Of a stretch of DNA of 40,137 nt, positions 7,643-36,873 are shown piece by piece (the stretch's first letter is position 1; every line of letters begins with the position of its first letter). The notes beneath the pieces are model-generated. The model saw only the letters and a program-made list of their open reading frames with translations. It was not told where the DNA came from and ran no database searches. Origin of the DNA: Candidatus Shapirobacteria bacterium (lineage in GTDB: Bacteria; Patescibacteriota; Microgenomatia; UBA12405); NCBI GenBank assembly GCA_017992115.1, contig JAGOPG010000003.1, forward strand, positions 1-40,137, written 5' to 3'. Position numbers and translations under genes: made by a program.

Positions 7643-8785
7643 CTAGTTATTTTTACGTAAGAAGGCGGGAATATCAAATTCGTCTTCAATTTCGATTCCT
7701 TCAGGGAGATCTTCGTCTGGAACTAAATTTTTGAGAGCTGGGTCAATATGAGTTTTTGTTTCAGTGTCTAAACTTTCCTGTTGAGTGGGAATGGATTTTT
7801 TAAATGAAGAATAAAATTGGCTTTTATTTGGATCAAAACCTGTGGCTATTACGGTAATTTTTACTTTATCTTCAAGTTCGGGGTCAATTGAAGCTCCAAA
7901 AATAACATTTGCATCAGGAGCTACACGGCTAGTAATATTTTTTGCAGATTCTTCAATTTCGGCCATAGTTAGGTCTTTTCCTCCTGTGATATTAATTAAT
8001 ACCCCTCTGGCACCGTCAATGTTTACTTCAATTAGTGGAGAATCAGTGGCGGCATCGACAGCATCACGTGCTCTGTTGGCACCTTCACCTTCACCTACTC
8101 CCATAAGAGCAGAGCCTGCATTGCTCATAACTGATTTAATATCGGCAAAATCAAGATTAATGAGTCCGGGAACTGTAATTAAATCGGCAATTGCTTTGGT
8201 ACCCTTGGTTAAAACAGAATCGGCTATTTTAAAGGCTTCGATAAGCGTTGCTTGAGAATTAACTACCTCTATCACTTTTTGATTTGGAATAACAATTAGA
8301 GTATCGACATTTGGTCGTAAACGGGAGATACCTTCATCTGCTTTGCTCATACGACGACTGCCTTCAAAAAGAAAAGGTTTGGTTACCACTGCAATTGTCA
8401 AAATACCTAACTCTTTTTTAGCGATTTCGGCAATTATTGGAGCAGCTCCGGTACAAGTTCCACCACCCATACCTCCAGTAATAAAAAGCATATCGGTACC
8501 CTCTAAAGCTTCTTTAATTCTTTCTCGAGATTCTTCAGCTGCTTGTTGACCGATATTGGGATCACCTCCAGCTCCCAGACCTTTGGTAATTTTTTCTCCT
8601 ATTTGAATTTTGATTGGGGCTAAGGAATTTAAAAGTGCTTGAGAATCGGTATTGATAGTAATAAAGTCTACCCCCTTGATTTCTTCTTCCGAGATCATGG
8701 AATTAACAGCATTATTACCACCGCCGCCAATGCCAATGACTTTTATTTTTGCGAACTGTCCGGTTAGAGTTTTAATCAGGGCCAT
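7643..8785 (-). CDS. ftsZ: cell division GTPase FtsZ
   Basis: GGGGNNAVN, the tubulin signature GGMGGGTCTGAAP, and the C-terminal FtsA-binding peptide DIPAFLRK. Confidence 0.97.
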   Translation of the reverse strand: MALIKTLTGQFAKIKVIGIGGGGNNAVNSMISEEEIKGVDFITINTDSQALLNSLAPIKIQIGEKITKGLGAGGDPNIGQQAAEESRERIKEALEGTDMLFITGGMGGGTCTGAAPIIAEIAKKELGILTIAVVTKPFLFEGSRRMSKADEGISRLRPNVDTLIVIPNQKVIEVVNSQATLIEAFKIADSVLTKGTKAIADLITVPGLINLDFADIKSVMSNAGSALMGVGEGEGANRARDAVDAATDSPLIEVNIDGARGVLINITGGKDLTMAEIEESAKNITSRVAPDANVIFGASIDPELEDKVKITVIATGFDPNKSQFYSSFKKSIPTQQESLDTETKTHIDPALKNLVPDEDLPEGIEIEDEFDIPAFLRKNN

Positions 8786-10036
8786 TTAAGGTAGAAGAGG
8801 CTCGATAAAATTTTTAATTTTTCCAAAAATACCATTAAAAGATACTTTAATCTTTTTATTAGTACTACTTTTAGAGACAGGTTTTTGATCTTGAAAATAG
8901 AGAATAGTACCAACAGTACTGGCAAAGGCAGGATTAGTAATGTCTTCAACCAGACCGCCAAGTCGAGGGGGATTGGCGATTCTAACAGGTAGAGGTATCA
9001 TATTTGTACAAACTTCTTTGGCTAAAATAGTATCGGCTCCCCCACCAGTGAGAACGATGCCTGCGGGTATATAGTTTTCCAGACCCGCATCTTTAATTTG
9101 TGTAAAAATAAATGAGAAAATTTCTTCTAATCGGGCTTTAATAATGCCATTAACGGCGGTGGAAAAAGAAATTTTTTTGTTTTCTTCACCCAAAATACCT
9201 AGATGTTTTAATTCAATTTCATCTTCAAAACCTTTTTTATCTGCATATGCCTTGAGTTTGATTTTAATCTTTTCAGCATCTTCTAAAGGTAATCTTAGGC
9301 CAATGGCTAAATCATTAGTGATATTGTTTGCACCAATTGGGATTACTCCGGAAAAAACGGGAGAAGATTCCTGAAATACAGTTATTGATGTACTACTGTT
9401 TCCCATGTCTATCAAAGCTACTCCAAGTTCTTTTTCGGTATCGCTTAGACAAGCTTTAGCAGCAGTCAGGCCAGAATAAGCCAAGGAGTCTACTTTTATG
9501 CCTACTTCATCAAGACATTTATACAAATTTTTTAATGCTGGAGTGGAGGCTAATATTAGATGAGTTTCAACTTCCAGTCTTTGGCCACTCATACCGATAG
9601 GGTCGACTACTCCTGATTCACCATCAACGGTGTATAAACGAGGGATAATATGAACAATTTCTTTATTTACAGGCAAGGAAATGGCTTTGGCTGCCTCTAT
9701 GGCTCGATCTATGTCTGCTTGGGAAATTTCTCCATTTTGACCAGATACGGCGGTAACTCCGGTGGAATTAATTGATTCAAAATGAGGGGCAGTGAGAGAA
9801 ATAAAAGCGTGATTTATTTGAAAACCAGCCATTCTTTCGGCTGATTCTACACATTCGGTAATGGTTTTGGAGGCTTGTTCCAGATTAATAATCTGACCTT
9901 TTTTAAATCCAAGTGCAGGTTGAGACGAAACACCAATGATGTTTACTTTTGAATCGTTTTCCGGATATTGACCAATGAGAACAGTGATTTTGCCAGTACC
10001 AATGCTGAGACAATTAATATTTTTTAAATGTTGCAT
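8786..10036 (-). CDS. ftsA: cell division protein FtsA
   Basis: Actin-fold motifs (LSIGTGKITVLIG, ALIDMGNSSTSITV, GIVLTGGGA). C-terminal amphipathic helix GIFGKIKNFIE. Its stop directly abuts the ftsZ ATG. Confidence 0.9.
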   Translation of the reverse strand: MQHLKNINCLSIGTGKITVLIGQYPENDSKVNIIGVSSQPALGFKKGQIINLEQASKTITECVESAERMAGFQINHAFISLTAPHFESINSTGVTAVSGQNGEISQADIDRAIEAAKAISLPVNKEIVHIIPRLYTVDGESGVVDPIGMSGQRLEVETHLILASTPALKNLYKCLDEVGIKVDSLAYSGLTAAKACLSDTEKELGVALIDMGNSSTSITVFQESSPVFSGVIPIGANNITNDLAIGLRLPLEDAEKIKIKLKAYADKKGFEDEIELKHLGILGEENKKISFSTAVNGIIKARLEEIFSFIFTQIKDAGLENYIPAGIVLTGGGADTILAKEVCTNMIPLPVRIANPPRLGGLVEDITNPAFASTVGTILYFQDQKPVSKSSTNKKIKVSFNGIFGKIKNFIEPLLP

Positions 10037-10045
10037 GATTTCATT

Positions 10046-11122
10046 CTAGAGCTTTTTGAGTAAATTTAATAGTTTAAGGTTGATGTTAGCCTCATTTTTT
10101 GATTTTAGATTTTTAGTCTTAAGTAGTCTTTTTATATTTTTTAGTAAAATTTGGCCATTAAGATTTTTATCTAAAATAATTATGGTGTTTTTAGGGTATT
10201 TTTTGTGAAGCCAAAGAGCATTTTTAAGTTGTTCGTTTTGCTGACTGACAGGTAAAGGAATAATAATGGAATTTTTTTTGAGGGCTTCAATTTCCTGGAT
10301 AGTATTGGCACCTGCTCGACTGATGATTATTTTTGAATTATTAAATACCCAACCAATATCTTTTGCTTGGATGAATGAATAAGCAAAATATAAGGGATAT
10401 TTTTTTTCTAGTTTTTTATATTCATTAAAATCATTTGGCCCGCATTGGTGAATAATAATGGTATCCTTAAGTTGAGGTAGAATTTCTTTTATATTTTCAT
10501 TGAGATGGAAAGAACCCTGGTTTCCGGCAGTAACAAAAATTAAAGGATATTTTTTGATTTTAAACTTTAAAAAATTAAAATTTTTTGAACTACTGTCGAA
10601 GATATCCCTACGCAAAAGATTACCGGTGACGATTTCTTTTGGTGATCTTTTCTTTAAAGGAAAAGATAGAGCAATGAATTTGGAAAATGGAGCACTCAAT
10701 CGTGTAGATAAGCTTTTAGTTTTCGTCTGTTCATGGGTAATACTTTTTATTCCCAAAAGCCAAGCGGCAAAAATTACTGGGACGGAAACATACCCTCCGA
10801 AGGAAACTATTGCCCACGGCTGAATTTCCTTAAGGATTTGATAAGCACTAATGAATCCAGTAAAAATTTGAGGGATTCCCCGGATAGTATTAAAAAAAGA
10901 ACGGCGATCAAACTTACCACAGGGAATAGAATAAAATTTAACTTTTAACGATGGAATAGTCTTTGATTCGATGGACGCTTGTGTGGATGTACAAGAATTA
11001 CATCGGCGACCGATATAATATATTTTCCAGTTGAATTCAGTATCCTGCTGGAGTTGATTAATTAATTCAACGGCTGGAGTGGTGTGAGTTCCGGTGAGAA
11101 CGAGACGGCGAGTTTTGATCAT
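10046..11122 (-). CDS. murG: UDP-GlcNAc:lipid I GlcNAc transferase MurG (divergent G-loop)
   Basis: The position between ftsW and ftsA fits murG. The C-terminal ISRAGANTIQEIEA...IIIPLP...NEQLKNA matches the MurG donor-binding motif. The N-terminal loop is LTGTHTTPAVEL rather than GGTGGH. Confidence 0.8.
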   Translation of the reverse strand: MIKTRRLVLTGTHTTPAVELINQLQQDTEFNWKIYYIGRRCNSCTSTQASIESKTIPSLKVKFYSIPCGKFDRRSFFNTIRGIPQIFTGFISAYQILKEIQPWAIVSFGGYVSVPVIFAAWLLGIKSITHEQTKTKSLSTRLSAPFSKFIALSFPLKKRSPKEIVTGNLLRRDIFDSSSKNFNFLKFKIKKYPLIFVTAGNQGSFHLNENIKEILPQLKDTIIIHQCGPNDFNEYKKLEKKYPLYFAYSFIQAKDIGWVFNNSKIIISRAGANTIQEIEALKKNSIIIPLPVSQQNEQLKNALWLHKKYPKNTIIILDKNLNGQILLKNIKRLLKTKNLKSKNEANINLKLLNLLKKL

Positions 11123-12200
11123 CTTTTGAGTATAACAAGGTAGAGTATTTTTTTTCTATATTTATAGCTAATCCCATAGCTGCAAAAAGATTAATAAGCG
11201 AAGAACCTCCGTAAGCGATAAAAGGAAAAGGGATACCAGTTAGGGGGATTAGGCCGACAATGGCGGCAAAATTAATAATCCCCTGAAAGGCGATCCAGGA
11301 TGCAATTCCAAAAACCAGAAGTTTTTCATAATCATGAGCAGCTACTTGAGCTAAACGAAAAAGGCGGGAAATAAGGATTAAAAATAAATAGGTGATCAAA
11401 ATTAAACCAATGAAACCCATTTCTTCACCGATGATAGCCAATATTGAATCAGTACTAATTTTAGGAAGGAATTTATATTTATGATCAGAGTTGGCAAAAC
11501 CTTTGCCGGTAATTCCCCCAGAAGCAAGTGTTAAAACCATTTGTTGACTGTGATAACTGAGATTTTGATTTTCCTGTTGGTTTAGCAGGGTTTTTAAACG
11601 ATCAAGACGATAGGGAGAAACTAAAACTAAAATTACAGAAGTTAGTATGAAAAACAAGGAAGGAATGAGTATATCTTTTATTGAAGCTCCGGACAAAAAA
11701 TAAATGCAAAATACTATTGCGCCTATCAAAATTGCGGTGCTAAGATTTGGTTCCAAAACAACAAGAAGCAATGGTGGTAAAAGATACAGTAATAGACTAT
11801 TAAAATTTTTTTTATCTTCGAGAGTAAAAAGATATGAAAAGAAAATTACTGAGACCAGTTTAAAGAATTCTGAAGGTTGGAAATTAAAGAAAGAAAAACT
11901 AATTTGTCTTTTGGCGCCATAGGCTTCTACACCTAACCCGGGAATAAAAACTAGAATTAAAAAAATTATACCCAATAAATATAATCGAAAAGAATTTTCT
12001 TTTACTAAATTTAAATTTATTTTAGAAGTAATAAAAAGTACTATTAAGCCGATAAGCAGCCAGAGAGATTGTTTTTTGATGAAAAAATAGGGATCACCTA
12101 TATCTTTTGAAGCCTCAAAAAGTGAAGATGAAGACATAAACAAGAGTCCGATTATACTTAAGATTAAAACGTATATAAAAAGCAAGGAAAAACGTTTCAT
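11067..12200 (-). CDS. ftsW: SEDS-family lipid II polymerase FtsW
   Basis: PSEFFKL, EPNLSTAIL, DSILAIIGEEMGFIG and PLTGIPFPFIAYGGSS. The dcw context fits. The tail overlaps murG by 56 nt. The start shares ATGA with the stop of the ATP-grasp gene. Confidence 0.85.
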   Translation of the reverse strand: MKRFSLLFIYVLILSIIGLLFMSSSSLFEASKDIGDPYFFIKKQSLWLLIGLIVLFITSKINLNLVKENSFRLYLLGIIFLILVFIPGLGVEAYGAKRQISFSFFNFQPSEFFKLVSVIFFSYLFTLEDKKNFNSLLLYLLPPLLLVVLEPNLSTAILIGAIVFCIYFLSGASIKDILIPSLFFILTSVILVLVSPYRLDRLKTLLNQQENQNLSYHSQQMVLTLASGGITGKGFANSDHKYKFLPKISTDSILAIIGEEMGFIGLILITYLFLILISRLFRLAQVAAHDYEKLLVFGIASWIAFQGIINFAAIVGLIPLTGIPFPFIAYGGSSLINLFAAMGLAINIEKKYSTLLYSKDDQNSPSRSHRNSHHSSR

Positions 12201-13282
12201 TTGAATTTTTTTAGATGTTCTTCATTAATAGTTTGCACTTTATTGGTTATGATTTTAAAATCTTCTATTTTTTGGGAAATAGTTCCTGAAGGATTTCTCT
12301 TGGTTATTTGAGAGCCAATTAAATTAGGATTATCAAAACGAGACTGTTCTTTTTTGAGATTAAATTCATAATCTAATGGTATAAATTGGGCTAAATGATG
12401 GTAAAAAAGCGGGGTAAGACCAGCTTTTTGTTCTATATAAGTGTAAAAAGCAAAAGAGGCGGTTAGGCGTGGATTGCATTCAAGTAAATAAATTTTTTGA
12501 GGAGTAACTAAAAAATCAAGTCCAAAGAAACCGAGATAATTTAGGGGTTGGAGAATTTTTTTTGAAAAATTTTGAGTTATTTTTTTTATTTGACGAAGTT
12601 GTGATTTGTGGAGAAGTGAGGGCCACTGACGTCCTACGGTGGCAAAGGGATTGCTGGTTAGGGTTGGAATTCCTGTAAATTGAAGAGCGGGTGGGCTTTG
12701 CAGGAGACCTTTTTTTGTTTGGCAACAATTGTTTAAAACAGAAAAACCCTGAATATAAGGGGAAAACTTAACCAGCATATTTTTTGGAATGTGTTTTTTA
12801 GCAGAGGTGTAATTATCAAAATTGTAAGTACTATTACCTGCCCACCCAAAATGGCTTTGGATGACTAGATTTGAGCCGTAAGCTTGCTGGGCTTTTGAAA
12901 AATTTTTTTGATTAAAAGGTAAAATTAAACTATCTATCAGAGGTAATTTAGCTTTTTGGCATTGTTGATAAAATTTAATTTTATCTTCCAGTAGACGATT
13001 ATTTTTGGCACTGGGAGCTGCTAGTAACCAGTGATTTTTTTGACAAATTTTTTCTATTTTGGCGGAAGGTTTAAAGGGAACGATTACTGGATTGGCAAAT
13101 GACTTGATATTTTTTTGAATGTTTTTATCTGCCAAAAGTTTTCCACTATTTTTATAGGTTAATTTTTTTTTACTGACACTTGTAAAATTTGGTATTTCGG
13201 GAAGAGAAATATCTAAAAAATTTTCGACAACTAAAAAGAAAAAATGATACGGTGACGATTTTATAGCTTGAGTGAGGGTCAT
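12197..13282 (-). CDS. ATP-grasp carboxylate-amine ligase, specificity unknown
   Basis: LEDKIKFYQ.., LVIQSHFGWAGNS, SPYIQGFSV and GFFGLDFLVTPQKIYLLECNPRLTAS (E-x-N-P-R type Mg/ATP site). I place the start at ATG 13282, not 13360, because it forms ATGA with the stop of the upstream gene. Confidence 0.65.
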   Translation of the reverse strand: MTLTQAIKSSPYHFFFLVVENFLDISLPEIPNFTSVSKKKLTYKNSGKLLADKNIQKNIKSFANPVIVPFKPSAKIEKICQKNHWLLAAPSAKNNRLLEDKIKFYQQCQKAKLPLIDSLILPFNQKNFSKAQQAYGSNLVIQSHFGWAGNSTYNFDNYTSAKKHIPKNMLVKFSPYIQGFSVLNNCCQTKKGLLQSPPALQFTGIPTLTSNPFATVGRQWPSLLHKSQLRQIKKITQNFSKKILQPLNYLGFFGLDFLVTPQKIYLLECNPRLTASFAFYTYIEQKAGLTPLFYHHLAQFIPLDYEFNLKKEQSRFDNPNLIGSQITKRNPSGTISQKIEDFKIITNKVQTINEEHLKKFK

Positions 13283-14073
13283 TGACGTTGGGTTCCAGTA
13301 CAAACAATAACTGGATAATTTCCTGCAAGGGAAGCATTTTGTTTGTATGCTGCCAGGCAAAGAGCAGACTCGGATGAGAGAAAATGTCCTTTTAATAATT
13401 TTTGAGATTCGATAATGGCTTGGTTGTTGATAATAAAAGCTGTTGATTGGTGTTTTTTTATGATATTAATAATTTTATTTTTTAGGGGAAGAGATTTTAC
13501 TGTTAGGGCATCGGTGATGATTTTGTTTTCTGGTTTATAATTTTTGACGAAATATTTGGCAATAGTAGGATTGGCTGCACTTTGAACCCCAAAAACTTTA
13601 ATGTTTTTGGGTAAAGCTTGTGCAATTCCAAGTAATGTGGTGCCACTGCCGACGGGGATAAAAATGCTACTAACTTGTGGTAATTGTTCAAGTATTTCTT
13701 CACCAATCTGGCGGTATCCTAAAAGAGCACTTGGATCAGTAGATTGACGTAAATTATAAGCATGATTTTTTTTAGCAAATTTGATAGCGTCACTGATAGC
13801 TTTTTTAGATTTGATTACAGAAGCAGAAATTAATTTAAGTTTTTGGGGGTTAATCGAAGGAGAAATAAAAACGGTCAATTTTATATTTTGTAAGTGACAA
13901 AAGTGAGCTGCAGAGATGGCAGCATTACCAGTTGAAGAAATTACTGCTTGAGAATATTTTTGTTTTTGGAGATTTTTAAGTTGCTCTATAATGGCTCGGT
14001 CTTTAGCTGAGCCGGTAAGGTTTTTATCTTCTCTTTTTAAGTAGACTGAATTAAATTTTTCTAAAGGAGTCAT
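13279..14073 (-). CDS. PLP-dependent enzyme, fold type II (threonine synthase / cysteine synthase / racemase-like), short form
   Basis: Schiff-base lysine context YLKREDKNLTGSAKDRA (compare NPTGSFKDR); SSTGNAA; Gly loop PVGSGTT; DPSALLGYRQIGEEILEQL resembles the threonine synthase core. Only 264 aa. Confidence 0.7.
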   Translation of the reverse strand: MTPLEKFNSVYLKREDKNLTGSAKDRAIIEQLKNLQKQKYSQAVISSTGNAAISAAHFCHLQNIKLTVFISPSINPQKLKLISASVIKSKKAISDAIKFAKKNHAYNLRQSTDPSALLGYRQIGEEILEQLPQVSSIFIPVGSGTTLLGIAQALPKNIKVFGVQSAANPTIAKYFVKNYKPENKIITDALTVKSLPLKNKIINIIKKHQSTAFIINNQAIIESQKLLKGHFLSSESALCLAAYKQNASLAGNYPVIVCTGTQRQ

Positions 14074-14080
14074 ATATAAT
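14051..14080 (+). promoter_or_regulatory. candidate promoter for the plus-strand LysW-like ORF
   Basis: Perfect TATAAT at 14075-14080, 27 nt upstream of ATG 14108. A weak -35 TTAAAT lies at 14051-14056 with an 18-nt spacer. The AT-rich context makes chance occurrence likely. Confidence 0.2.
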
Positions 14081-14107
14081 AATATAGTTATATTTTAGCT
14101 AATATTT

Positions 14108-14272
14108 ATGAAAGGCGCTAAAGACAAAGTAATATGTCCTGATTGTAAATCAGTTATTAATAGTAAAGATGCAGCTGTTGGTGATATTTTGGAATGTGAG
14201 GAATGTGGCACTGAGGTAGAAGTGTTGTCTATCAAACCATTAAAATACCGGGAATTGATTGAGGAGAAGTAA
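14108..14272 (+). CDS. LysW-like zinc-ribbon protein (possible amino-group carrier protein), 54 aa, not in the ORF track
   Basis: My own translation is MKGAKDKVICPDCKSVINSKDAAVGDILECEECGTEVEVLSIKPLKYRELIEEK. CPxC...CxxCG with GDIxxC..CG.E.EV...PL follows the LysW/ArgW pattern. It is the only ORF I found by eye covering the gap between the flanking minus-strand genes (14074-14231). The tail lacks the canonical EDWGE. Confidence 0.55.
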   Translation: MKGAKDKVICPDCKSVINSKDAAVGDILECEECGTEVEVLSIKPLKYRELIEEK

Positions 14273-14801
14273 TTCGGTAAATACCATCGTATTTAAAATT
14301 TTTGTCATTGATATCAAATTGCCCGTAATGAACTTTGCGACCTGCCCGAGAGCTTTCGACATAATAAATTTTGTTTTCAACTTTTTCAATAATAAAGATA
14401 ACGTGGCCTCCTTTTTCTTGACGAATTAAGTCGGCAGTCTGAGCATCCTTTATATTTATTTTTTTAGAAAGCGGGGCAGAAGTGAGAATGTCGGCGGAAG
14501 TTTTTCGAGGGTTGAAATTAGTTTTAAGGTAGAAATTAAGTAGTTGGACAGTCAAACCAGAGCAGTCAATTCCAATTTTATGTTTTTTTTGAAAATTGTA
14601 AATTTGAGTTGGAGTCATATTGATGATTTTTTTATTATCCGTGTTTGCTAATTCTATGGTTTTCAGGGCGATTTCTTTGGCATTACCCTTGCCAACTAAA
14701 GCAATCTCAGGAAGGTATTTTTTGGTGACGTTCATGTAATAAGGAATGCCAATATATTTATCTATTTCTTTATAAAGTTCTTCTAATTTAGACCTAACCA
14801 T
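14232..14801 (-). CDS. NlpC/P60-family cysteine peptidase/amidase, no signal peptide
   Basis: Catalytic Cys context GIDCSGLTVQLL, downstream His in GGHVIFII, then YYVESS. The N-terminus MVRSKLEELYKEID is hydrophilic. I prefer ATG 14801; the track's 14867 start lies inside mraY. Confidence 0.6.
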   Translation of the reverse strand: MVRSKLEELYKEIDKYIGIPYYMNVTKKYLPEIALVGKGNAKEIALKTIELANTDNKKIINMTPTQIYNFQKKHKIGIDCSGLTVQLLNFYLKTNFNPRKTSADILTSAPLSKKINIKDAQTADLIRQEKGGHVIFIIEKVENKIYYVESSRAGRKVHYGQFDINDKNFKYDGIYRITSPQSIPGILMV

Positions 14802-15817
14802 AGACCAAAAATTGCTAAAATAATTGCGGCTAACCAAGCACGGAATACAATTTTGGGTTCTTCCCATCCAAGTTTTTGCAAAGTAAGGTGAATTGGAGCT
14901 GCTGGAAAAATTTTCTTGCCACGATACTTTTTACTGATAATCTGTATAGCACTACTGAGACCTTCTACTATAAAAGGCATGCCAACAATTATTAAGGGAA
15001 TAATTTTCCCTAAAAGAAGAGCTATAAGTGCAAAGGTGGCCCCAAAGGAAAGGGAGCCAACATCGCCCAATATTATTCGAGAAGGATATACATTAAAATA
15101 TAGAAAGGAGATGAGAGCACCAATCCAAAGAGAGAGAAAAAGAGATATTGGTGTATCCAAGGAAGTACCAGCTAAAATCCAAAAAGCAAAAAGTGCAATC
15201 AATAAAATTCCGCAAGATAGGCCGTCTAGTCCATCAGTAATATTAAAAAAATTGGCAAAGGCAACAATAATGGTGGTACTAATGGGAATAAAAAAGAGGC
15301 CAAGAGTAATGGCACCTAAAAAAGGCAGGTAAATGAAATGAATACCAAGTTTGAAGTAAAGAAAAAAAGATATAAATAAGGCAAGAATGATTTGAAGTAT
15401 CAATTTATGTTTCATTCGAAGGCCAAAAAATCCGTTTTTTTCAAAACCAAAAAACTTGTGAACATCATCATATAAACCCAGTAGACCGAAACTAATGAAA
15501 GTGAAAAAAATGATAAAAATCTCGTTTAATAGATTAAAATTACTGGAAATAAAGATTCCTGAAATCTTAAGTAGTTGAAAAAGAACAAAAAAAAGTATGG
15601 TAACAGAAAAGATAACTAATAATCCCCCACCGGAGGGAACACCAGCTTTAATGGAGTGGTATTTATCAAAAATTGGAGTGCTTTTGTTTTGAAAATCGAG
15701 TGTTTTTTGTTTTTGACGCTGAAATTTGAAGTGATAAAGAAGATTAATAAAAGGGACAACCAAGATGCTTGTAGCGATAAAAGCAAATAATAGTAGTCCA
15801 AGAAAAAGATTAATCAT
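14783..15817 (-). CDS. mraY: phospho-MurNAc-pentapeptide translocase MraY
   Basis: Polytopic membrane protein with NFFNITDGLDGL, GDVGSLSFGA and a PAAPIHL-like HHH-region remnant. dcw context fits. Confidence 0.9.
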   Translation of the reverse strand: MINLFLGLLLFAFIATSILVVPFINLLYHFKFQRQKQKTLDFQNKSTPIFDKYHSIKAGVPSGGGLLVIFSVTILFFVLFQLLKISGIFISSNFNLLNEIFIIFFTFISFGLLGLYDDVHKFFGFEKNGFFGLRMKHKLILQIILALFISFFLYFKLGIHFIYLPFLGAITLGLFFIPISTTIIVAFANFFNITDGLDGLSCGILLIALFAFWILAGTSLDTPISLFLSLWIGALISFLYFNVYPSRIILGDVGSLSFGATFALIALLLGKIIPLIIVGMPFIVEGLSSAIQIISKKYRGKKIFPAAPIHLTLQKLGWEEPKIVFRAWLAAIILAIFGLWLGLN

Positions 15818-17142
15818 GTTTTGATATATTTTATACTAGCACCTAATGAGCATAAACGTTCAGCTAGTTTTTCATAACCTCTCTCGATGTATTCAACATT
15901 ATTGATAAGACTCTCCCCTTCTGCGGTTAATGCAGCCAAGGTAATACAGGCACCAGCGCGTAAATCGTTGACATCAAAAGTTGATGCTTTTAGTTTATTT
16001 GGGCCATAAATTTTTACTCCATGAAAATATTCTGGTTTGTCGGTGTCTAGATTAAACTCATAATAAGTTTCAGGGTGTTCAACAATGGGGTTGAAAAGGG
16101 TGGTTTTAACCCCCATTTTATTCAAATAGGTAATGTGTTGGAAGCGGTAAGGATAGACTCTCTCTATAATAGTACTGACACCAACAGCTTGAGTTAACAA
16201 AACTGAAAAAACGGCTTGCCAGTCGGTCATAAAACCTGGTTCAGGACCGGTTTCTATATTAATAGCACTTAGAGGTTTTACCCAAGAGACGGTTACTTCA
16301 TCGCTTCCACGGTTGATTTTTGCCCCCATTTTCTCGATGGTATCTAAAAATGTTTTGATAATATTTGGATTTACCCGAAGGATATTTACAGAACCTTTGG
16401 TAGCGAGGGCAGCGCAAGCAAAGGTGACTGTTTCATTCCTGTCAGAAATTACTTGATGGCTGGTACCATGGAGTTGACTTACTCCATTTACAATAATAGT
16501 TTTTGGATTTTTTGGATCGCGTTTAATATCTGCCCCCATGGAATTGAGCATGACGATTAAATCATCAATTTCTGGCTCTTGAGCACAGTTTTCAAAAATA
16601 CTCTGTCCGGGTGTCATGGCGGCAGTCATTACAATGACTTCGGTTACAGTATGGCTAGGTTTATTAAAAACATAATGAGTTGTCTTTATTTTGTCTGTAG
16701 AAAATATCATCAAATCTTTTTCAAATGTTGTAGAAATTCCCATTGTTTCGAAACAATCAAAAAGACGGTCCAGGGGGCGGGCACCTAAGCGATCACCTCC
16801 TGGTGTGGGTATAATGGCTTTACCGGTTCGGACCAAAAGTGGTGCTGCAAAAATAAACGAGGTTCGGGATTTTTCTCCGGTACCATGAGGAACAGTGGAT
16901 GATTTAATTTTTTTAGTTTGAATAGTAATGCCATGTTCGCCATCGTTTGTTATTACAGATCCCAGACTTTTGGCAATACTATTTGTAATCCGAACATCAG
17001 AAATTTGAGGAACATTGAGTAAGTGACATTCTTCTTCGGTTAATAGGGTGGCTATTAATTCTTTGTATGAGGCATTTTTTGCACCTCGTATGGAGACTTC
17101 ACCGATTAAAGGATTACCTCCTTGGATGATGTATCTTGACAT
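15814..17142 (-). CDS. murA: UDP-GlcNAc 1-carboxyvinyltransferase MurA (Asp at the fosfomycin-target position)
   Basis: IQGGNPLIGEVSIRGAKNA, the active-site loop PTPGGDRLGARPLD and LRAGACITLAAL. Length and architecture are typical of MurA. Confidence 0.9.
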   Translation of the reverse strand: MSRYIIQGGNPLIGEVSIRGAKNASYKELIATLLTEEECHLLNVPQISDVRITNSIAKSLGSVITNDGEHGITIQTKKIKSSTVPHGTGEKSRTSFIFAAPLLVRTGKAIIPTPGGDRLGARPLDRLFDCFETMGISTTFEKDLMIFSTDKIKTTHYVFNKPSHTVTEVIVMTAAMTPGQSIFENCAQEPEIDDLIVMLNSMGADIKRDPKNPKTIIVNGVSQLHGTSHQVISDRNETVTFACAALATKGSVNILRVNPNIIKTFLDTIEKMGAKINRGSDEVTVSWVKPLSAINIETGPEPGFMTDWQAVFSVLLTQAVGVSTIIERVYPYRFQHITYLNKMGVKTTLFNPIVEHPETYYEFNLDTDKPEYFHGVKIYGPNKLKASTFDVNDLRAGACITLAALTAEGESLINNVEYIERGYEKLAERLCSLGASIKYIKT

Positions 17143-18429
17143 TTATTTTTTAAAATAATTAATAACTTTTTTGAAAATATTTAAACCCTCTTGTCCTCCG
17201 GAACTAAAATGAACAAGTATTTCATTTTTTTTAAGTGTTTTTTGATAATGATTGAGAACATCGATTGGTAATGGTAAATAAAAACTGTGGGGAATAATTT
17301 TTAGATAATCCTTGGCTGTTAAGCGAATTTTATATTTGTGGTTAAAGTTGAGTTTATAAATTACGGTTTCGGAAGATAGTTCTAAAGCTTTGGCGAGTTG
17401 TTTTATACTATCGGGATGTTGCATAAAGGAAGCATGACTTTCATAAAATACCTTGATTTTTTTTTGAGGATAATGTTTAATTATCGTTTTAATAGTGGCT
17501 TCAATTCTTTTTGCAGATTGAGAAAAATCATCGATAAAAATATTATTTTGATTTTGAAAAAGTATTTCAGCCCGTCTTTTGATGCCTTTAAAATCGGTTA
17601 AGGCATTTTGAGTGATTTGTGTATTTAGTAATAGTTTTTGACAAAGGGTAAAAACAGCACCTAAATTCTGGAGATTATAATCCCCAATTAACTGGCTTTT
17701 AAATTTAATTGGTTTATAGGGAATAGTAGGACATTTAGCAGATAATAATAAGGGAGGTATCTGTTTGTCTTGAGGGTTGTAAATAATTAAACCGTTTTTG
17801 GGAAGGCTATTAATTAATTTCTGAAATGCTTTTAGATTTTCAGTAGCAGAGGTATAACTTTCTTTGTGTTCCCAGTTAACACTGGTCAAAATAAGGTATT
17901 TTACTGGATAATAGAGGAATTTTGCTTTGACATCTAAACCGTTAATAGATTCGTCACCTTCTATTATCGACCAGTCTGAATTAGAAAAATTTAATGAAGG
18001 TATAGCATTTATAGCTTGACCACCAAACATGTATGCTGGATTCAGGTGGTGTTTTTTAAAACAATAAACCAAGGCAGCGGTAGTGGTTGTTTTACCAAAA
18101 GACCCGGCAACGACAATAGAATTTTTTTTGGTTAACATTTTTGCTAAATATTTAGTTGCTGATATATACGGAATATTAAGTTCTCGAGTTTTTTCATACT
18201 CTTCTCTTGTTCTAGAAAAACTTTTATAGGATGAACCTACTATTACCAAATCAATATTTCGATTAATTTGTTGGTGATTTATGGGAATTTTGGCTTTCTT
18301 TAATTGGGTACTAAAAGGAGGAAAAATGTTATCTTGATCTGAGCCAGTAATTTCATGACCTGATTTCTTTAAGGCTATAGCCAGAGGTGCGGCCATAGAA
18401 CCAGCGATTCCAATAATATGGATATGCAT
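17143..18429 (-). CDS. Mur ligase of the MurC/Mpl type
   Basis: N-terminal Rossmann IHIIGIAGSMAAPLAIALKKSGHEITGSD; IPYISATKYL; P-loop VVAGSFGKTTTTA at about residue 113. DDFSQSAKRIEAT sits where MurC/Mpl have DD[YF].HHP. Confidence 0.7.
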   Translation of the reverse strand: MHIHIIGIAGSMAAPLAIALKKSGHEITGSDQDNIFPPFSTQLKKAKIPINHQQINRNIDLVIVGSSYKSFSRTREEYEKTRELNIPYISATKYLAKMLTKKNSIVVAGSFGKTTTTAALVYCFKKHHLNPAYMFGGQAINAIPSLNFSNSDWSIIEGDESINGLDVKAKFLYYPVKYLILTSVNWEHKESYTSATENLKAFQKLINSLPKNGLIIYNPQDKQIPPLLLSAKCPTIPYKPIKFKSQLIGDYNLQNLGAVFTLCQKLLLNTQITQNALTDFKGIKRRAEILFQNQNNIFIDDFSQSAKRIEATIKTIIKHYPQKKIKVFYESHASFMQHPDSIKQLAKALELSSETVIYKLNFNHKYKIRLTAKDYLKIIPHSFYLPLPIDVLNHYQKTLKKNEILVHFSSGGQEGLNIFKKVINYFKK

Positions 18430-18431
18430 GG

Positions 18432-19034
18432 CTAATTATAAGATATCCATTGATTATTAACAAAGTATTCAAAATTGGGAAAGTTTCTTTTGTAAAAACC
18501 TAATTTATTTTTGGGGTTGAAGCGACCCAGATAACAATACTTTAATTGCTTAGCGGCGCTATCGATGGCCGTTTGAAGAGCAAGCCTGATGGGTAGATCC
18601 TGATGAGCGTATTTTGGATTATAAAAAACATAGGCAATATGGGAAAAATTCTTCTCAAAGAGGCAAAGTGAGTAGGCAACCACCTGATTTGTAATAGTGT
18701 CTGTCCAAATATAAAGATAATTAAAAATATGATTCTTAAAAACAGTTTTTATGGAAGAAGAGGGAAAATCCCAATTTAATTCCTTAACCCACGAATGGAT
18801 AGTTTTTTGTAAAGATGGAGTGTATTCGAAAGTACTTAAAGGAACTAATTGATGAGTAAAATGTTGGGTTTTTTTTAGAATACGACGATTTTCTGATGAA
18901 AGTTGAAAATTATCTAATTTTGAGCGTGAGGAAAAATTATCATCGGTATAAAATAATTTTTTTTGATTGCGTTGAGGCAACCATCCTTGTTGGTAATTTT
19001 CTTCAAGACTTAGATTATTTTGTAAATTAAACAT
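18432..19034 (-). CDS. Bpt/ATE-family (arginyl/leucyl-tRNA protein transferase-like) GNAT-fold protein
   Basis: FQLSSENRRILKK, VVAYSLCLFEKNFSHIAYVFYNP and YCYLGRFNPKNKLGFYKRNFPNFEYFVNNQW resemble the ATE_C/Bpt core (..S.S.RR.., A.Y.F..P, YLGY....M.YK..F.P.E.....W) as I recall it. The Cys-rich ATE_N motif is absent. Confidence 0.5.
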   Translation of the reverse strand: MFNLQNNLSLEENYQQGWLPQRNQKKLFYTDDNFSSRSKLDNFQLSSENRRILKKTQHFTHQLVPLSTFEYTPSLQKTIHSWVKELNWDFPSSSIKTVFKNHIFNYLYIWTDTITNQVVAYSLCLFEKNFSHIAYVFYNPKYAHQDLPIRLALQTAIDSAAKQLKYCYLGRFNPKNKLGFYKRNFPNFEYFVNNQWISYN

Positions 19035-20277
19035 TTTTTTCCTTTAATCGGAAAGCAGTGCGAAATGCTTCGGTTTCAGACCAGGGGTATTCGGTTTTAC
19101 CCAATAAAATCGATGTTTCATGACCTTTTCCACAGGCAATAATGGTGTCTCCTGATTTGGCGATTTTGACAGCTAAATTAAATGCATCCTGACGGTTTGA
19201 TAATTGAGTGTATAAAAAGCCACTTTGGTTTTCCGGGAATTTATCGGCTTCAAAATAAGTTGATTTTTTAGGGTTTATCCCGGAAATAATTTGAGCATTT
19301 ATAGTGTTGATATTTTCATTACGGGTGTCGTCGGATGTGATTATGGCAATATCAGCAATTTTTGAAACGACATCACCCATTAGAGGACGTTTGCTTTTGT
19401 CGCGGCCACCAGTAGCCCCGAAAATAACAATTAATCTTCCTTTTACACTTGGTTTTAGAGAAGATAAAACCTTGGATAAAGCGTTGGGGGTATGAGCAAA
19501 ATCAACTATACAACGAAGATGAAGGTTGTTGTCGACCAATTCTAATCGGCCTTTTATTTCCGGGAAATGGGCTATAGTTTCGGCAAAAACATTTGAGTCC
19601 AGTTTTAGTTCAGAAAAGGCTGAGAAACAGGCTAAGATATTATATATTTGATAATCGTAATTAGAGTCCGTTATAAAATTGTGGCGATTAATTCTGAAAG
19701 TCATATTTTCTGGAGTAATTTTAATTCTGTCTGCAGTGTAATCTGATTTGTTTTTAAGGCCATAAGTTTTAAATTTAACATTAAGAGATTTTTTTATATC
19801 TGAAAAATATTCATCATCATGATTGAGAATGGCTAATTCAGATTGGGTAAAAAGTTTTTCCTTGGCTTTTACATATTGATCCATGTTTTTGTAATAATCC
19901 AGGTGTTCGTGGCTAATGTTGGTAATAATGCCAATTTTAAAATTACATCCCCAATAACGAAACTGACTTAATGCGTGAGAAGTAACTTCACAAACTACAT
20001 GAGTGTAGCCAGATTTAGAAAAATCATATAAAATTTTTTGCAAAATTTTGGGTGAAGGGCTGGTTGTATGCAATCCGGGACTGTTGATAGTGCTAATGAC
20101 TCCGGCGTGTATACCACTGTTTTCTAATAATTTTTGCAATAGTGTACAGGTGGTTGTTTTTCCATCAGTACCAGTTACTCCAATCAGAGTTAATTTGCGA
20201 CTGGGAAAGGAATAGTAGAAATTCCAGAAGATGGCTTGAGGTAAATGCCAAAGCCAATTTTTTAGGGTTTTGAGCAT
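19027..20277 (-). CDS. murE: MurE-like Mur ligase lacking the N-terminal UDP-binding domain
   Basis: FYYSFPSRKLTLIGVTGTDGKTTT (P-loop Lys at residue 40), VDFAHTPNAL, FGATGGRDKSKRPLMG and TSDDTRNE (the DNPR position). Confidence 0.7.
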   Translation of the reverse strand: MLKTLKNWLWHLPQAIFWNFYYSFPSRKLTLIGVTGTDGKTTTCTLLQKLLENSGIHAGVISTINSPGLHTTSPSPKILQKILYDFSKSGYTHVVCEVTSHALSQFRYWGCNFKIGIITNISHEHLDYYKNMDQYVKAKEKLFTQSELAILNHDDEYFSDIKKSLNVKFKTYGLKNKSDYTADRIKITPENMTFRINRHNFITDSNYDYQIYNILACFSAFSELKLDSNVFAETIAHFPEIKGRLELVDNNLHLRCIVDFAHTPNALSKVLSSLKPSVKGRLIVIFGATGGRDKSKRPLMGDVVSKIADIAIITSDDTRNENINTINAQIISGINPKKSTYFEADKFPENQSGFLYTQLSNRQDAFNLAVKIAKSGDTIIACGKGHETSILLGKTEYPWSETEAFRTAFRLKEKNV

Positions 20278-20290
20278 ATGGGCTTATGAA

Positions 20291-21868
20291 TTATAGCAAG
20301 GAGTCCAAGTCTCTGGCGAGACTAAACCATAAAGGAGCAGCGGTAGATGACCCCCATTGAGATGCTTTTGGATTGTTCAAAGTAACAATCATGGTAAATT
20401 TAGGCTGGTTACAGGGATAAAAGCCTATATAAGAGCCGATAGTATTGTCTTCTTGATATTCACCTTCAACAGCTACTTGGGCGGTACCACTTTTGGCGCA
20501 AACAATCATGTCATCATCTTTTAATTTGGAAACTGGACTATTATTGACGCCATAAATTAACAACTTTTTTACAAAATCTGTTGTCTTTGTAGAAAAAACT
20601 GAAGAAGATTGGATTGGTGTGTTTTGATTTATGTGAGCTTTGACTAATTTTCCATCGTTTGCTAGTGTATTAAAAGCTTGTACCATTTGTAATTGGTTGA
20701 CAGCAATACCTTGACCAAAAGAAGCGGTGGCGAAATCTATGTCTGACCAATAGTCTTTAAGGGGTGAGATTGATTCCCCCACTAGTTCAACGCCAGTTTT
20801 TTGATTGAATTTGAGACGTTGGTAATATTCGAGGAATTTATTTAATCCCATGGCGCTGTTGATATAGCTCATACTAATATTGTCGGAATTTTTGATGGTA
20901 TCGAAAAGGTTGGTATCAGGATGAACTTGTTTGTCCCAATTATTTATAGTATATTCACCGATTTTCCGTGGTTGATTACAGTTTGGACAGTTCCAGTTTT
21001 GATTAATACTATTTGAATCCAAAGCAGAGGCAATGACTAGGGGTTTAAAAATTGATCCGGGTTCAAATAGATGACCAATGTTTTTTATGGTAAAGCTGGC
21101 ACTAGGGCTAGCTTCAACTGTCGCCATGGCCAATATTTCTCCACTTTGAGGTTCAAGAATAATTAGAGAGGCAGATTCAGCTTGATAAGTGGCAAGACCG
21201 ATTTTGAGTGTGTCTTCAGCTAATTTTTGGATTTTTCTATCAATGGTAGTGTGTAGATCCTGGCCATCTATTTCATTTTTTTGCCAATTTTTCCGTGTTA
21301 ATAATCCAATTCCGGTACCATCGACTACGTTTCTTTTAAATCCTACTTGACCACTAATTTGTTTTAAATATTTTTTTTCTAAATTTAAAACTAGATCCTT
21401 GGCCAAATCCCCTTCCGGATAATAGCGGCGTTGTTTCAGTTCAAATTCTAATCCGCTGGTTTTGGAGAGTTTATTTTTCTCAGCTGTATTAAACTCACCT
21501 TTAAATTGAAGCCATTTTTGATTAGGATTTTTAAATTTATCAATTAATTGAGCATTTTGGGTGGCAAAATCGCTTTTAATTGAAGTAATTTCTGTTAGGA
21601 TTTCATCAAGGTCATTTTTAAAATTTGGTTTATATAGGGCTAAACTATAATAACTGTAACCAAGGCTTAAGGGATATTTATCGCGGCTCAGGATTTTACC
21701 CTGACGAGGGAAAATTTTTACAATCTTATATATTTGAGATAAGGCCTGTTCGTGTAATTCCTGGCCAGAAATTACTTGGATGTAAAATAATTTTCCTAAT
21801 ATCAGGGAAAATATAATATATAAAAAAATTAAAAGGATTTTAGGGCGTGATTTGTCCATTGATAGCAA
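20291..21868 (-). CDS. ftsI: class B penicillin-binding protein (FtsI-type transpeptidase)
   Basis: N-terminal TM; SxxK in GSIFKPL; SxN in KNSDNIS; KSG in AKSGTAQ. The track start at 21868 is TTG; ATG 21859 (MDKSRP..) is an alternative. Confidence 0.85.
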   Translation of the reverse strand: MLSMDKSRPKILLIFLYIIFSLILGKLFYIQVISGQELHEQALSQIYKIVKIFPRQGKILSRDKYPLSLGYSYYSLALYKPNFKNDLDEILTEITSIKSDFATQNAQLIDKFKNPNQKWLQFKGEFNTAEKNKLSKTSGLEFELKQRRYYPEGDLAKDLVLNLEKKYLKQISGQVGFKRNVVDGTGIGLLTRKNWQKNEIDGQDLHTTIDRKIQKLAEDTLKIGLATYQAESASLIILEPQSGEILAMATVEASPSASFTIKNIGHLFEPGSIFKPLVIASALDSNSINQNWNCPNCNQPRKIGEYTINNWDKQVHPDTNLFDTIKNSDNISMSYINSAMGLNKFLEYYQRLKFNQKTGVELVGESISPLKDYWSDIDFATASFGQGIAVNQLQMVQAFNTLANDGKLVKAHINQNTPIQSSSVFSTKTTDFVKKLLIYGVNNSPVSKLKDDDMIVCAKSGTAQVAVEGEYQEDNTIGSYIGFYPCNQPKFTMIVTLNNPKASQWGSSTAAPLWFSLARDLDSLL

Positions 21869-22049
21869 ACTTGGAGGCGTATTCTATTTCCAGATTTTGA
21901 TTGTCAATATTTAACTGTTCGTATTTTTGGCTTAAATTAGCATATTGTTGATTCATATTTATTATATTTATCGAGTAATAAATAGAAAATATTATTTGAA
22001 AAATAATTAATGCCAGAGCAACAGCGACAAGACTTTTATTTAGTGTCAT
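21840..22049 (-). CDS. ftsL: FtsL/DivIC-like septation protein
   Basis: Small bitopic protein: a TM segment (LVAVALALIIFQIIFSIYY) followed by the coiled-coil-like NQQYANLSQKYEQLNIDNQNLEIEY. The position between rsmH and ftsI fits. I prefer the start at MTLNK (22049) over 22106. Confidence 0.5.
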   Translation of the reverse strand: MTLNKSLVAVALALIIFQIIFSIYYSINIINMNQQYANLSQKYEQLNIDNQNLEIEYASKFAINGQITP

Positions 22050-22911
22050 GATTGATAAAACATCTAAACATGGCAGATCGGGAGAGTGGATTCCTTTTGA
22101 TCTCACTATACGATGCGGAAAATTTGTTTGATTTTATTTTATTTTTTTGAAGAAAATTTTTTACAATTCTATCCTCTCCGGAGTGAAAAGTGATAATACC
22201 TATCTTACCATCTTTTCTAACTATTTTTTGGGACGTGTTCAATAATTTTTGAAGATTATTGAATTCGTTGTTGACGGCAATTCGAAGAGACATAAAAATT
22301 TTTGTGGAGGGATTAATTTTTGAACGATAATGTTTTTTTTGATAATAGTTTTCGATAATGGTGGCAAGTTGAATACCTGTAGTGATAGGTTTCTTTTGTC
22401 GAGCTTGAATTATCTCAAAAACTAGTGGTTTGGCTAATTTTTCCTGGGAATATTTGGTAAATAAATTATAAAGTTGAAACTTGTCCCAAGTATTAATTAT
22501 TTCTTCAGCAGTTAATTTTTGTTTTTTGGGATTAAGACGCATATCCAAAGAGTCGGTATCAGAATAAGAAAAACCACGTTTTGTGGATACTTGTTGGTTT
22601 CGACTAAGGCCGAGATCAGCAAAAAGTGCGTCAAGGGGTATCTTTATATGACGAGAATATATTTGGTTTAGATTACTAAAATTACCTGATATTGGATGAA
22701 ATCTTTTATCCAATTTTTCTTTTTTAATTCTTTTGGTAGTAATTTCTAAATTAATAGGATCGTCATCAAGACCAAAAACAGTAGCTCCCTTTTTTAAAAA
22801 TTCTAATGTATGACCACCATTACCTAAAGTGCAATCTAGAATAGCAAGACCCTCTTTGGGTTGAAAAAAATTTAGGACTTCATCAAGGAGGACAGGTTGA
22901 TGATAGGTCAT
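22036..22911 (-). CDS. rsmH: 16S rRNA (cytosine1402-N4)-methyltransferase RsmH/MraW
   Basis: HQPVLLDEVL, DCTLGNGGH, ADLGLS and FHSGEDRIVK. Confidence 0.95.
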   Translation of the reverse strand: MTYHQPVLLDEVLNFFQPKEGLAILDCTLGNGGHTLEFLKKGATVFGLDDDPINLEITTKRIKKEKLDKRFHPISGNFSNLNQIYSRHIKIPLDALFADLGLSRNQQVSTKRGFSYSDTDSLDMRLNPKKQKLTAEEIINTWDKFQLYNLFTKYSQEKLAKPLVFEIIQARQKKPITTGIQLATIIENYYQKKHYRSKINPSTKIFMSLRIAVNNEFNNLQKLLNTSQKIVRKDGKIGIITFHSGEDRIVKNFLQKNKIKSNKFSASYSEIKRNPLSRSAMFRCFINHDTK

Positions 22912-27365: not shown

Positions 27366-27384
27366 AGATAAATTTTATCATATG

Positions 27385-36866: not shown

Positions 36867-36873
36867 AAGCAGA

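Follow-up and report, generated by a model that had tools for sequence, protein, structure and literature searches.

An E-x-K-tailed LysW-like zinc-ribbon protein in the MurD position of Microgenomates cell-wall clusters: a candidate carrier for the D-glutamate step of peptidoglycan synthesis

We analysed a 40,137-nt stretch of contig JAGOPG010000003.1 from a Candidatus Shapirobacteria bacterium (assembly GCA_017992115.1), in the following called the window, and focus on a short plus-strand open reading frame (ORF) at 14108-14272. This ORF is a genuine gene. Its product is a zinc-ribbon protein of the LysW fold with a C-terminal E-x-K motif, and it belongs to a conserved module whose core consists of the LysW-like protein, a ThrC-like pyridoxal 5'-phosphate (PLP) enzyme and an ATP-grasp_3 ligase, usually joined by an NlpC/P60-like peptidase and, outside the cell-wall clusters of Microgenomates, with a MurD-like ligase adjacent. 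We read the small protein as a carrier component, or an obligate small-subunit component, of this module and assign this reading a probability of roughly 0.45. As to its task, we lean towards a covalent carrier that is loaded at its tail and serves the residue-2 step of the peptidoglycan stem peptide, i.e., the D-glutamate (D-Glu) step.

Results

The small gene and its conservation

The ORF runs from ATG 14108 to TAA 14270-14272 and encodes 54 aa (MKGAKDKVICPDCKSVINSKDAAVGDILECEECGTEVEVLSIKPLKYRELIEEK). A preliminary description of this DNA had reported these boundaries, and we could reproduce its translation as well as the local geometry, i.e., a distance of 34 nt to the divergent start of the PLP gene (14073) and a convergent overlap of 41 nt with the ORF 14232-14867. 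It is also correct that this is the sole credible plus-strand gene between 2220 and 40126, since all other ORFs of at least 100 aa lie on the minus strand, barring overlapping shadow ORFs. Wrong is the statement that no other ORF lies in the gap between the two neighbours: a 46-codon ORF starting with TTG is found in antisense at 14095-14235 (-).

An open antisense frame would be expected if the small ORF were a chance or antisense reading, and this frame is indeed open over at least 40 codons in 63/74 orthologs. Openness in that many orthologs is uninformative as a discriminator, such that we relied on codon-position entropies and on the ratio of nonsynonymous to synonymous substitution rates (dN/dS). 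The entropies across the 74 orthologs are 0.69/0.46/1.35 for the three codon positions, and the median dN/dS is 0.19 (744 unsaturated pairs), i.e., the small gene is under purifying selection. Third-position variability and dN/dS thus identify the plus frame as the coding frame and effectively refute the chance-ORF reading. Nothing was found in support of the antisense ORF at 14095-14235; its open frame is probably a by-product of the codon usage of a Glu/Asp/Ile-rich sense frame rather than a second gene.

To collect ortholog loci, one genome per species was scanned with the neighbouring ATP-grasp, which gave 80 loci, nearly all from Candidatus Shapirobacteria or other Microgenomates, with the locus context readable within +/-10 kb of a match. 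Using a profile of the small protein, the small ORF was found in all 72 reference-genome loci with enough upstream DNA. These are 71 direct matches plus locus L062, where the gene starts MPDTNNKVICPDCG and then enters a masked N block. A further 27 metagenome loci carry it as well. In every case it lies on the opposite strand, upstream of the PLP and ATP-grasp genes, so that neither the genome loci (72/72) nor the 27 metagenome loci include a counterexample to its co-occurrence with both. Two loci seemed to deviate, L062 (small ORF absent) and L067 (PLP gene absent); in both, the cause is a 100-N masked run inside the gene. Thus, the conservation check that the preliminary description had proposed (dN/dS, synteny) comes out in favour of the gene, which is kept wherever the flanking genes sit in adequate sequence. 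Distant relatives of the ATP-grasp (L122-L157) have neither LysW-like nor PLP neighbours. A word-indexed search additionally retrieved 19 close homologs of 55-98% identity.

The small gene and the PLP gene share a divergent promoter region. A TATAAT element within 60 nt upstream of the small gene is present in 61/74 loci (12.9 +/- 3.4 in shuffles), and in 48/74 loci it takes the form CATATAAT, i.e., TATAAT fused to the PLP start codon. The copy in the window is a probable -10 element of the small gene, whose leader would then be short or absent. No obvious Shine-Dalgarno sequence precedes the small gene. A scan for the full sigma-70 consensus yielded no plus-strand promoter; the conserved part is the -10 element only.

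LysW fold and E-x-K tail

With regard to its fold, the small protein is a relative of LysW. The Pfam family Zn_ribbon_LysW (PF21344) matches residues 9-49 with 39.4 bits (cut-off 27, E = 4.7e-10) and is found in all 19 close homologs. In a profile search of the PDB, LysW chains come first (Thermococcus kodakarensis 5k2m_E, 6e-9; Thermus thermophilus 3wwl_A, 2e-7). The AlphaFold2 (AF2) model has a mean predicted local distance difference test (pLDDT) score of 81.5, and its top six Foldseek matches in the PDB are all LysW, with template modelling (TM) scores of 0.65-0.71, root-mean-square deviations of 1.6-2.7 A and 29-42% identity, after which the list drops to generic zinc ribbons with TM <= 0.5. 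Because LysW tops both the profile and the structure search and is followed by such a clear drop, we consider the homology established. The LysW-like assignment of the preliminary description is therefore borne out by hidden Markov model (HMM), PDB sequence profile and fold.

The same does not hold at the functional level. Of the HMM checks, PF21344 is above its cut-off, but the equivalog TIGR01206 is not (35.2 vs 53.2 bits), and NF041070 likewise stays below (25.7 vs 75). A true LysW holds glutamate or alpha-aminoadipate on the gamma-carboxylate of its C-terminal Glu (PMC12998189). Such an attachment is impossible here, since the tail ends in E-x-K-COOH and not in EDWGE-COOH. Homologs of LysX, LysZ, LysY, LysJ or LysK were not found either, neither in the ORFs that we scanned in the window nor in the regions flanking about 150 loci. 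That the protein is an ordinary LysW/ArgW of lysine or arginine biosynthesis, as some automated annotations have it, is thus barely credible: four homologs are named 'LysW' by the Joint Genome Institute (JGI) and the Pfam match backs the domain assignment, but both equivalog scores are too low, the EEK tail has no terminal Glu, the partner ligase is unrelated to LysX and the genomic context always consists of peptidoglycan genes. We reject this reading on equivalog score, terminal residue, ligase type and neighbours alike. The pipeline label 'lysine biosynthesis protein LysW' is probably wrong for these proteins.

The tail, ELIEEK in the window, had already been described as acidic, ending in Lys and lacking DWGE, which is accurate. 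Among the 74 orthologs the C-terminus reads EEK in 71, ETK in 2 and EQK in 1. That is, Lys(-1) and Glu(-3) are invariant (74/74), while position -2 is Glu in 71/74, accepts Q and T, and in the wider family also V, I and S. The side chains at -3 and -1, not the one at -2, are therefore those that matter. This pattern fits an enzyme that reads two side chains on one face of an extended tail.

For the wider family, we searched 1.84 billion representatives exhaustively with a profile and obtained 479 matches, of which we classified the best 150. Among about 116 small proteins in this best part, 47 end in E-x-K (mostly hydrophobic-EEEK) and 9 in DWGE, i.e., as classical LysW; the remainder of the 150 have long acidic tails or tandem ribbons. 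The E-x-K ending is found on all module-linked copies. Given that 47 small proteins share it, we define a large distinct 'E-x-K tail' subfamily of LysW-like proteins, making up ~40% of the small representatives recovered, whose members are currently mislabelled as lysine-biosynthesis LysW by annotation pipelines or left uncalled. The invariant ending, the extent of this family beyond the candidate phyla radiation (CPR) and the link to the MurD position (see below) had escaped the preliminary description.

Apart from these, about 30 representatives of 100-180 aa hold two tandem LysW-like ribbons (e.g., P0143, P0147, P0153, P0157, P0167). P0143 ends in EEEK, and the tails of most other tandem-ribbon proteins are basic. 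Seven ribbon repeats occur in two very long proteins of 807 and 1126 aa. Tandem- and repeat-ribbon proteins are further uncharacterised branches of the LysW-ribbon superfamily.

Conservation as such does not single out covalent loading. The small protein could instead act non-covalently, as an adaptor or regulatory subunit by which a complex of PLP enzyme, ATP-grasp and MurD is assembled or gated, with a tail that is never modified. The Glu and the N-acyl-Lys-COOH of the tail would then serve as a pseudo-substrate in imitation of UDP-N-acetylmuramic acid (UDP-MurNAc)-tripeptide with its ...Glu-Lys end, and a terminal N-acyl-L-Lys with free alpha-carboxylate and epsilon-amine may indeed be chemically similar to the end of the stem tripeptide. 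Obligate co-occurrence and the common promoter region suit a subunit equally well, and the globular domain is highly conserved throughout, beyond the tail alone. However, all characterised relatives of this fold are covalent carriers that use the C-terminal residue, and two invariant tail side chains across phyla, combined with a dedicated ligase and a peptidase, are more typical of a load-and-release system. We thus consider an unmodified adaptor unlikely, though worth keeping in view.

The module in the place of MurD

Two arrangements of the module can be distinguished. In type I, which we observed in over 90 CPR loci besides the window, it is embedded in the division and cell-wall (dcw) cluster with the order penicillin-binding protein (PBP), MurE, Fem-like, MurC, (MurA), (MurF), MraY, NlpC/P60-like, [LysW-like, reverse], PLP, ATP-grasp, FtsW, MurG, FtsA, FtsZ. 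The canonical dcw order is mraY-murD-ftsW-murG. Lying between MraY and FtsW, the module therefore occupies the exact place of murD. MurD itself is absent from all of the more than 90 type I clusters, which hold MurC, MurE and sometimes MurF.

In type II, formed by distant E-x-K members, the module stands outside dcw clusters; as in type I, the small gene diverges from PLP and ATP-grasp, and here it is convergent with a Mur ligase gene (L085, L087/L088, L090, L100, L101). This ligase is best matched by MurD (TIGR01087, 176-198 bits with a cut-off of 212) and scores about 60 bits for MurF. A MurD-like ligase directly abuts the module in Candidatus Dormibacterota (L087, L088, L090; high-GC), in low-GC lineages (L085, L100, L101) and in L158. 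The MurD-like proteins of the module have Lys at the position of Escherichia coli K348 and Asn at that of D182. The L-Glu-ligating MurD2 has Arg at the K348 position, where Lys marks a D-Glu-type MurD (PMC8788868). The D182 position is not diagnostic of D-/L-Glu specificity, because a genuine Gram-positive MurD has Thr there.

Peptidases of the NlpC/P60 type recur in four different arrangements of the module. Orthologs of the NlpC/P60-like protein of the window are found in the standalone modules L085, L160 and L161, the last of which adds MraY. In L158 and L159 (122-1934) the LysW-like gene (tail EEEEK) is followed by a PF00877 NlpC/P60 gene and a MurD-like gene, all co-directional. This peptidase gene lies 4 nt after the LysW-like gene and its product is, with 301 aa, a bona fide PF00877 member outside the family of the window protein, which suggests an independent recruitment. 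A minimal core of LysW-like protein, PLP enzyme and ATP-grasp is joined directly to FtsW in L094.

The neighbourhood also bears on a possible role in the D-Ala branch, where the ATP-grasp would be a non-orthologous D-Ala-D-X ligase in place of Ddl, the PLP enzyme a racemase in place of Alr, and the small protein an accessory. In favour of this, Alr depends on PLP and Ddl belongs to the ATP-grasp enzymes, we see no ddl and no alr in these dcw clusters, and the PDB relatives of the PLP enzyme include serine/aspartate racemases. On the other hand, the ligase to which the module is tied outside dcw is MurD-like (176-198 bits) and not MurF-like (~60), and the module holds the MurD slot with or without MurF in the cluster. 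Since the ATP-grasp furthermore shows no specific similarity to Ddl and both carrier and peptidase are left unexplained, we regard this reading as improbable.

Regarding the composition of the Microgenomates dcw clusters (window 7643-22911; more than 90 loci, L005-L119), we observed MurC, MurE, MurA, MraY, MurG and sometimes MurF. MurD, MurB and Ddl never occur within these clusters, and those of Shapirobacteria are also without MurF (statements for the clusters only). The MurE of the window (19027-20277, -) scores 334 bits with TIGR01085, above the cut-off, and misses the ~75-aa N-terminal UDP-binding domain; its alignment begins at model position 76, and the gap to the upstream PBP gene is 13 nt. 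The MurF of L004 (11249-12505) is N-terminally short, too, starting from model position 61. Short MurE and MurF could reflect an altered substrate recognition in these CPR lineages. An ATE_C/arginyltransferase-like gene of 200 aa (18432-19034, -; L004 15249-16025), similar to Fem/GNAT-type aminoacyl-tRNA transferases, is kept at the MurE-MurC junction of nearly all type I loci; in L161 (431-2663), two FemAB genes stand beside MraY instead. These genes suggest tRNA-dependent additions to the stem peptide.

A further alternative builds on this cluster composition, i.e., the small protein might be a scaffold whose terminal Lys is extended at its alpha-carboxylate by the ATP-grasp, perhaps with the N-truncated MurE/MurF, in a RimK- or pearlin-like manner. 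Some portion of the stem peptide, or else a modified amino acid, would be pre-built on the protein and cut off by NlpC/P60 for ligation to UDP-MurNAc-L-Ala. The missing UDP-binding domain of MurE in the window, the short MurF of L004 and the lack of MurD in the CPR clusters are in line with this. ATP-grasps that extend C-termini, such as RimK, typically act on acidic tails (PMC10375531), and there is a precedent for a scaffold peptide (PMC9303977). A PLP enzyme, however, cannot act on an amide-bonded alpha-amine and would be limited to supplying free substrate; standalone modules have a MurD-like ligase only, neither MurE nor MurF; and nothing points to a changed substrate of the truncated MurE. 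We hence judge a scaffold to be distinctly unlikely.

Concerning taxonomy, Shapirobacteria-type clusters with the module occur in many metagenome-assembled genome (MAG) records titled 'uncultured Gammaproteobacteria bacterium' (L005, L007, L009 and others) and also in a record with the title 'Candidatus Methanoperedens sp.' (L074), and Dormibacterota-type proteins are likewise oddly named ('Micrarchaeaceae archaeon', 'Verrucomicrobiae'). These names look like placeholder or contaminated taxonomic labels.

Partner enzymes

Positions of all features are summarized in Table 1. The catalytic motifs are intact in all three partners, and the assignment of each neighbour in the preliminary description withstood our analysis.

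Table 1. Features of the module and its surroundings in the window.
Feature	Position	Strand	Remarks
FtsW (SEDS protein)	11067..12200	-	downstream boundary of the MurD slot
ATP-grasp_3 ligase, PRK06524-like	12197..13282	-	361 aa; likely ATG 13282, listed ORF from TTG 13360
Fold-type II PLP enzyme, threonine-synthase-like	13279..14073	-	264 aa; without ThrC N-terminal domain
Divergent intergenic region	14074..14107	.	34 nt; TATAAT at 14075-14080 beside the PLP start codon
LysW-fold zinc-ribbon gene, 'E-x-K tail' subfamily	14108..14272	+	homology, fold, conservation
Cys-ligand codons 10, 13, 30, 33	14135-14137, 14144-14146, 14195-14197, 14204-14206	+	
Codons for C-terminal Glu52-Glu53-Lys54	14261..14269	+	presumed functional/attachment tail
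NlpC/P60-like cysteine peptidase, cytoplasmic	14232..14801	-	~189 aa; conserved start MVRSKL at 14801
MraY	14783..15817	-	upstream boundary of the usual MurD slot

The PLP enzyme is nearest to short threonine synthases. Both its PLP-lysine motif GSAKDR and its SSTGNA loop are intact and kept in 108/108 full-length orthologs. Its PDB relatives include fold-type II serine and aspartate racemases as well as CysM.

The ATP-grasp gene is translationally coupled to the PLP gene. PRK06524 is its best NCBIfam match, and neither a RimK nor a LysX model matches. Its AF2 model (pLDDT 94.5) is closest in fold to biotin carboxylase, PurK and PurT at 10-16% identity, and its family profile finds no LysX, ArgX or RimK chain in the PDB at E <= 10. 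Thus, HMM, PDB profile and fold searches agree with the earlier remark that the ligase is not RimK/LysX-like. The Mg/ATP residues K101, D256, E268, N270 and R272 are invariant.

An ATP-grasp that adjoins a small peptide with Glu and Lys near its C-terminus is also the setting of a ribosomally synthesised and post-translationally modified peptide (RiPP), here a graspetide precursor cyclised by the ligase via a Glu-Lys lactam. The small protein is a folded zinc ribbon homologous to LysW, conserved across phyla and encoded inside essential-gene (dcw) clusters, and the ATP-grasp matches the ATP-grasp peptide ligase 8ynd only with E = 2.2. Taken together with the chance or antisense ORF, we give this possibility next to no weight. 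The graspetide precursor was rejected as a candidate on the conserved fold, the dcw context and the distance of the ligase from peptide-ligase structures.

The NlpC/P60-like protein has the GIDCSGL and G-x-H motifs with intact Cys and His and no signal peptide. It is a divergent member: 11/14 of its orthologs match PF00877, and MepS/Spr are the nearest PDB sequences. NlpC/P60 is a papain-fold peptidase family that typically cuts gamma-D-glutamyl bonds.

Possible mechanism

The preliminary description had suggested a carrier or adaptor role in cell-wall precursor synthesis. This is strongly supported by the gene neighbourhood, which furthermore points to the MurD/D-Glu step; the role as such we infer. 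Together, the invariance of the tail, its set of partners (dedicated ligase, PLP enzyme and peptidase) and the tie to MurD or its slot suggest a cycle of loading, modification and release at the residue-2 step.

For a tail-loaded covalent carrier, this cycle may be pictured as follows. The ATP-grasp would use ATP to join the epsilon-amine of the terminal Lys to an amino acid, likeliest to the gamma-carboxyl of L-Glu, by analogy to MfnD and BtrJ, two gamma-glutamyl ligases from this broad group of ATP-grasp enzymes. The PLP enzyme could then epimerise the free alpha-amino-acid end to D-Glu, for which BtrK, acting on a gamma-Glu-carrier, and isopenicillin N epimerase are possible analogues. A gamma-D-glutamyl-specific NlpC/P60 peptidase would finally free D-Glu and regenerate the carrier. 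Alternatively, MurD might use the tethered D-Glu first, with unloading by NlpC/P60 and/or MurD. The net effect would be an ATP-driven, carrier-tethered, one-way supply of D-Glu for peptidoglycan.

The following observations weigh against this picture. The closest relatives of the PLP enzyme are threonine synthases, which perform phosphate elimination/replacement; racemase activity is one option for the fold. As the ATP-grasp is not LysX/RimK-like, the LysW-LysX analogy is not transferable by homology. Furthermore, the attachment chemistry would have to differ from that of LysW, since the terminal residue is Lys and not Glu. Finally, the Shapirobacteria cluster shows no visible MurD, such that either MurD is encoded elsewhere or the module does not feed it.

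We therefore grade the parts of the proposal differently. A tail-loaded covalent carrier at the residue-2 step is what we favour, as stated above, while the exact shuttle of loading, epimerising and releasing D-Glu is put forward as a doubtful, if concrete, version of it. With the same reserve, Microgenomates, Candidatus Dormibacterota and other uncultured lineages might possess a third, carrier-protein-dependent D-Glu route, replacing glutamate racemase and possibly, in the murD-less CPR clusters, MurD.

If true, a LysW-type carrier would here be used for the first time beyond lysine/arginine synthesis and secondary metabolism. Organisms of minimal metabolism would, moreover, have a new way of supplying a D-amino acid, placed in the MurD slot of an entire CPR class. 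The cytoplasmic part of peptidoglycan synthesis, a major target of antibiotics, is generally taken to be completely known and almost universal; the only alternative for the D-Glu step that we know of is MurD2/MurL.

Other features of the window

The plus strand is G-rich throughout 1-40137, with a GC skew between +0.01 and +0.32 and a monotonically rising cumulative skew. The minus strand carries about 38 kb of genes, the essential dcw cluster among them, and the small gene alone is co-oriented with the G-rich strand. With its genes on the minus strand, the dcw cluster thus appears on the C > G strand.

Directly upstream of the dcw region we find a large surface-polysaccharide cluster (25416-39119, -). 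It encodes a DUF4012 protein, a Bac_transf priming transferase, an NTP_transferase, six GT1/GT4 and two GT2 glycosyltransferases, a Wzy_C polymerase/ligase-like protein and a hexapeptide acyltransferase. The ORFs 22914-23516 and 35731-36273 show no family match. Two paralogs of the shape, elongation, division and sporulation (SEDS) family are present, i.e., a RodA-like protein (3831-4847, -) next to ileS outside the dcw cluster and FtsW inside; the same duplication is found in L004. Genes for a ParB/Noc-like protein (2220-3071) and signal peptidase I (1665-2243) flank the region.

Comparison with known systems

Our literature searches brought up neither an account of this gene set nor a LysW-type carrier linked to peptidoglycan. 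As a carrier, the small protein would work most like systems in which amino acids are handled on a tether, such as LysW itself, BtrI/BtrJ/BtrK or CysO/CysM. We first compare it with LysW/ArgW. Both systems have a homologous Cys4 zinc-ribbon domain of ~45 aa followed by a short acidic C-terminal tail (~54 aa in total), a genetic coupling to an ATP-grasp ligase and a release hydrolase at hand, i.e., LysK there and NlpC/P60 here. They differ in the tail (EDWGE-COOH vs E-x-K-COOH) and in the ligase, which is of another ATP-grasp clade here and has a fold-type II PLP enzyme as its partner. The kinase, reductase and aminotransferase of the LysW/ArgW pathways have no counterpart in the module, and the context there is lysine/arginine synthesis, whereas here it is peptidoglycan (the MurD step).

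MurD2/MurL provide a precedent for a rerouted D-Glu installation (PMC8788868). The likeness would lie in a non-canonical, ATP-consuming D-Glu step with its gene beside a MurD-family ligase. The proteins, however, are unrelated, and no carrier, PLP enzyme, ATP-grasp or peptidase takes part there. At the K348 position the module ligases have Lys in contrast to the Arg of MurD2, and at D182 Asn in contrast to Glu. As for a MurL candidate, the modules hold no extra conserved unknown gene, with no search made with the MurL sequence itself.

In the CysO/CysM/Mec+ system of Mycobacterium tuberculosis, the C-terminus of a small carrier enters a fold-type II PLP reaction, much as proposed here, and release by a protease follows. 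CysO, in contrast, has a ThiS-like beta-grasp fold and a GG-thiocarboxylate, the system works without an ATP-grasp, and the product is cysteine.

Butirosin biosynthesis belongs to secondary metabolism. Its carrier BtrI is a phosphopantetheinyl acyl carrier protein working via a thioester, and BtrK is a decarboxylase of another PLP fold. The logic of carrier, ATP-grasp and PLP enzyme (BtrI/BtrJ/BtrK) nevertheless matches that proposed here: the ATP-grasp BtrJ puts Glu via its gamma-carboxyl on BtrI, the PLP enzyme BtrK acts on the free end of the tethered unit, and the gamma-glutamyl unit is later removed by a dedicated enzyme.

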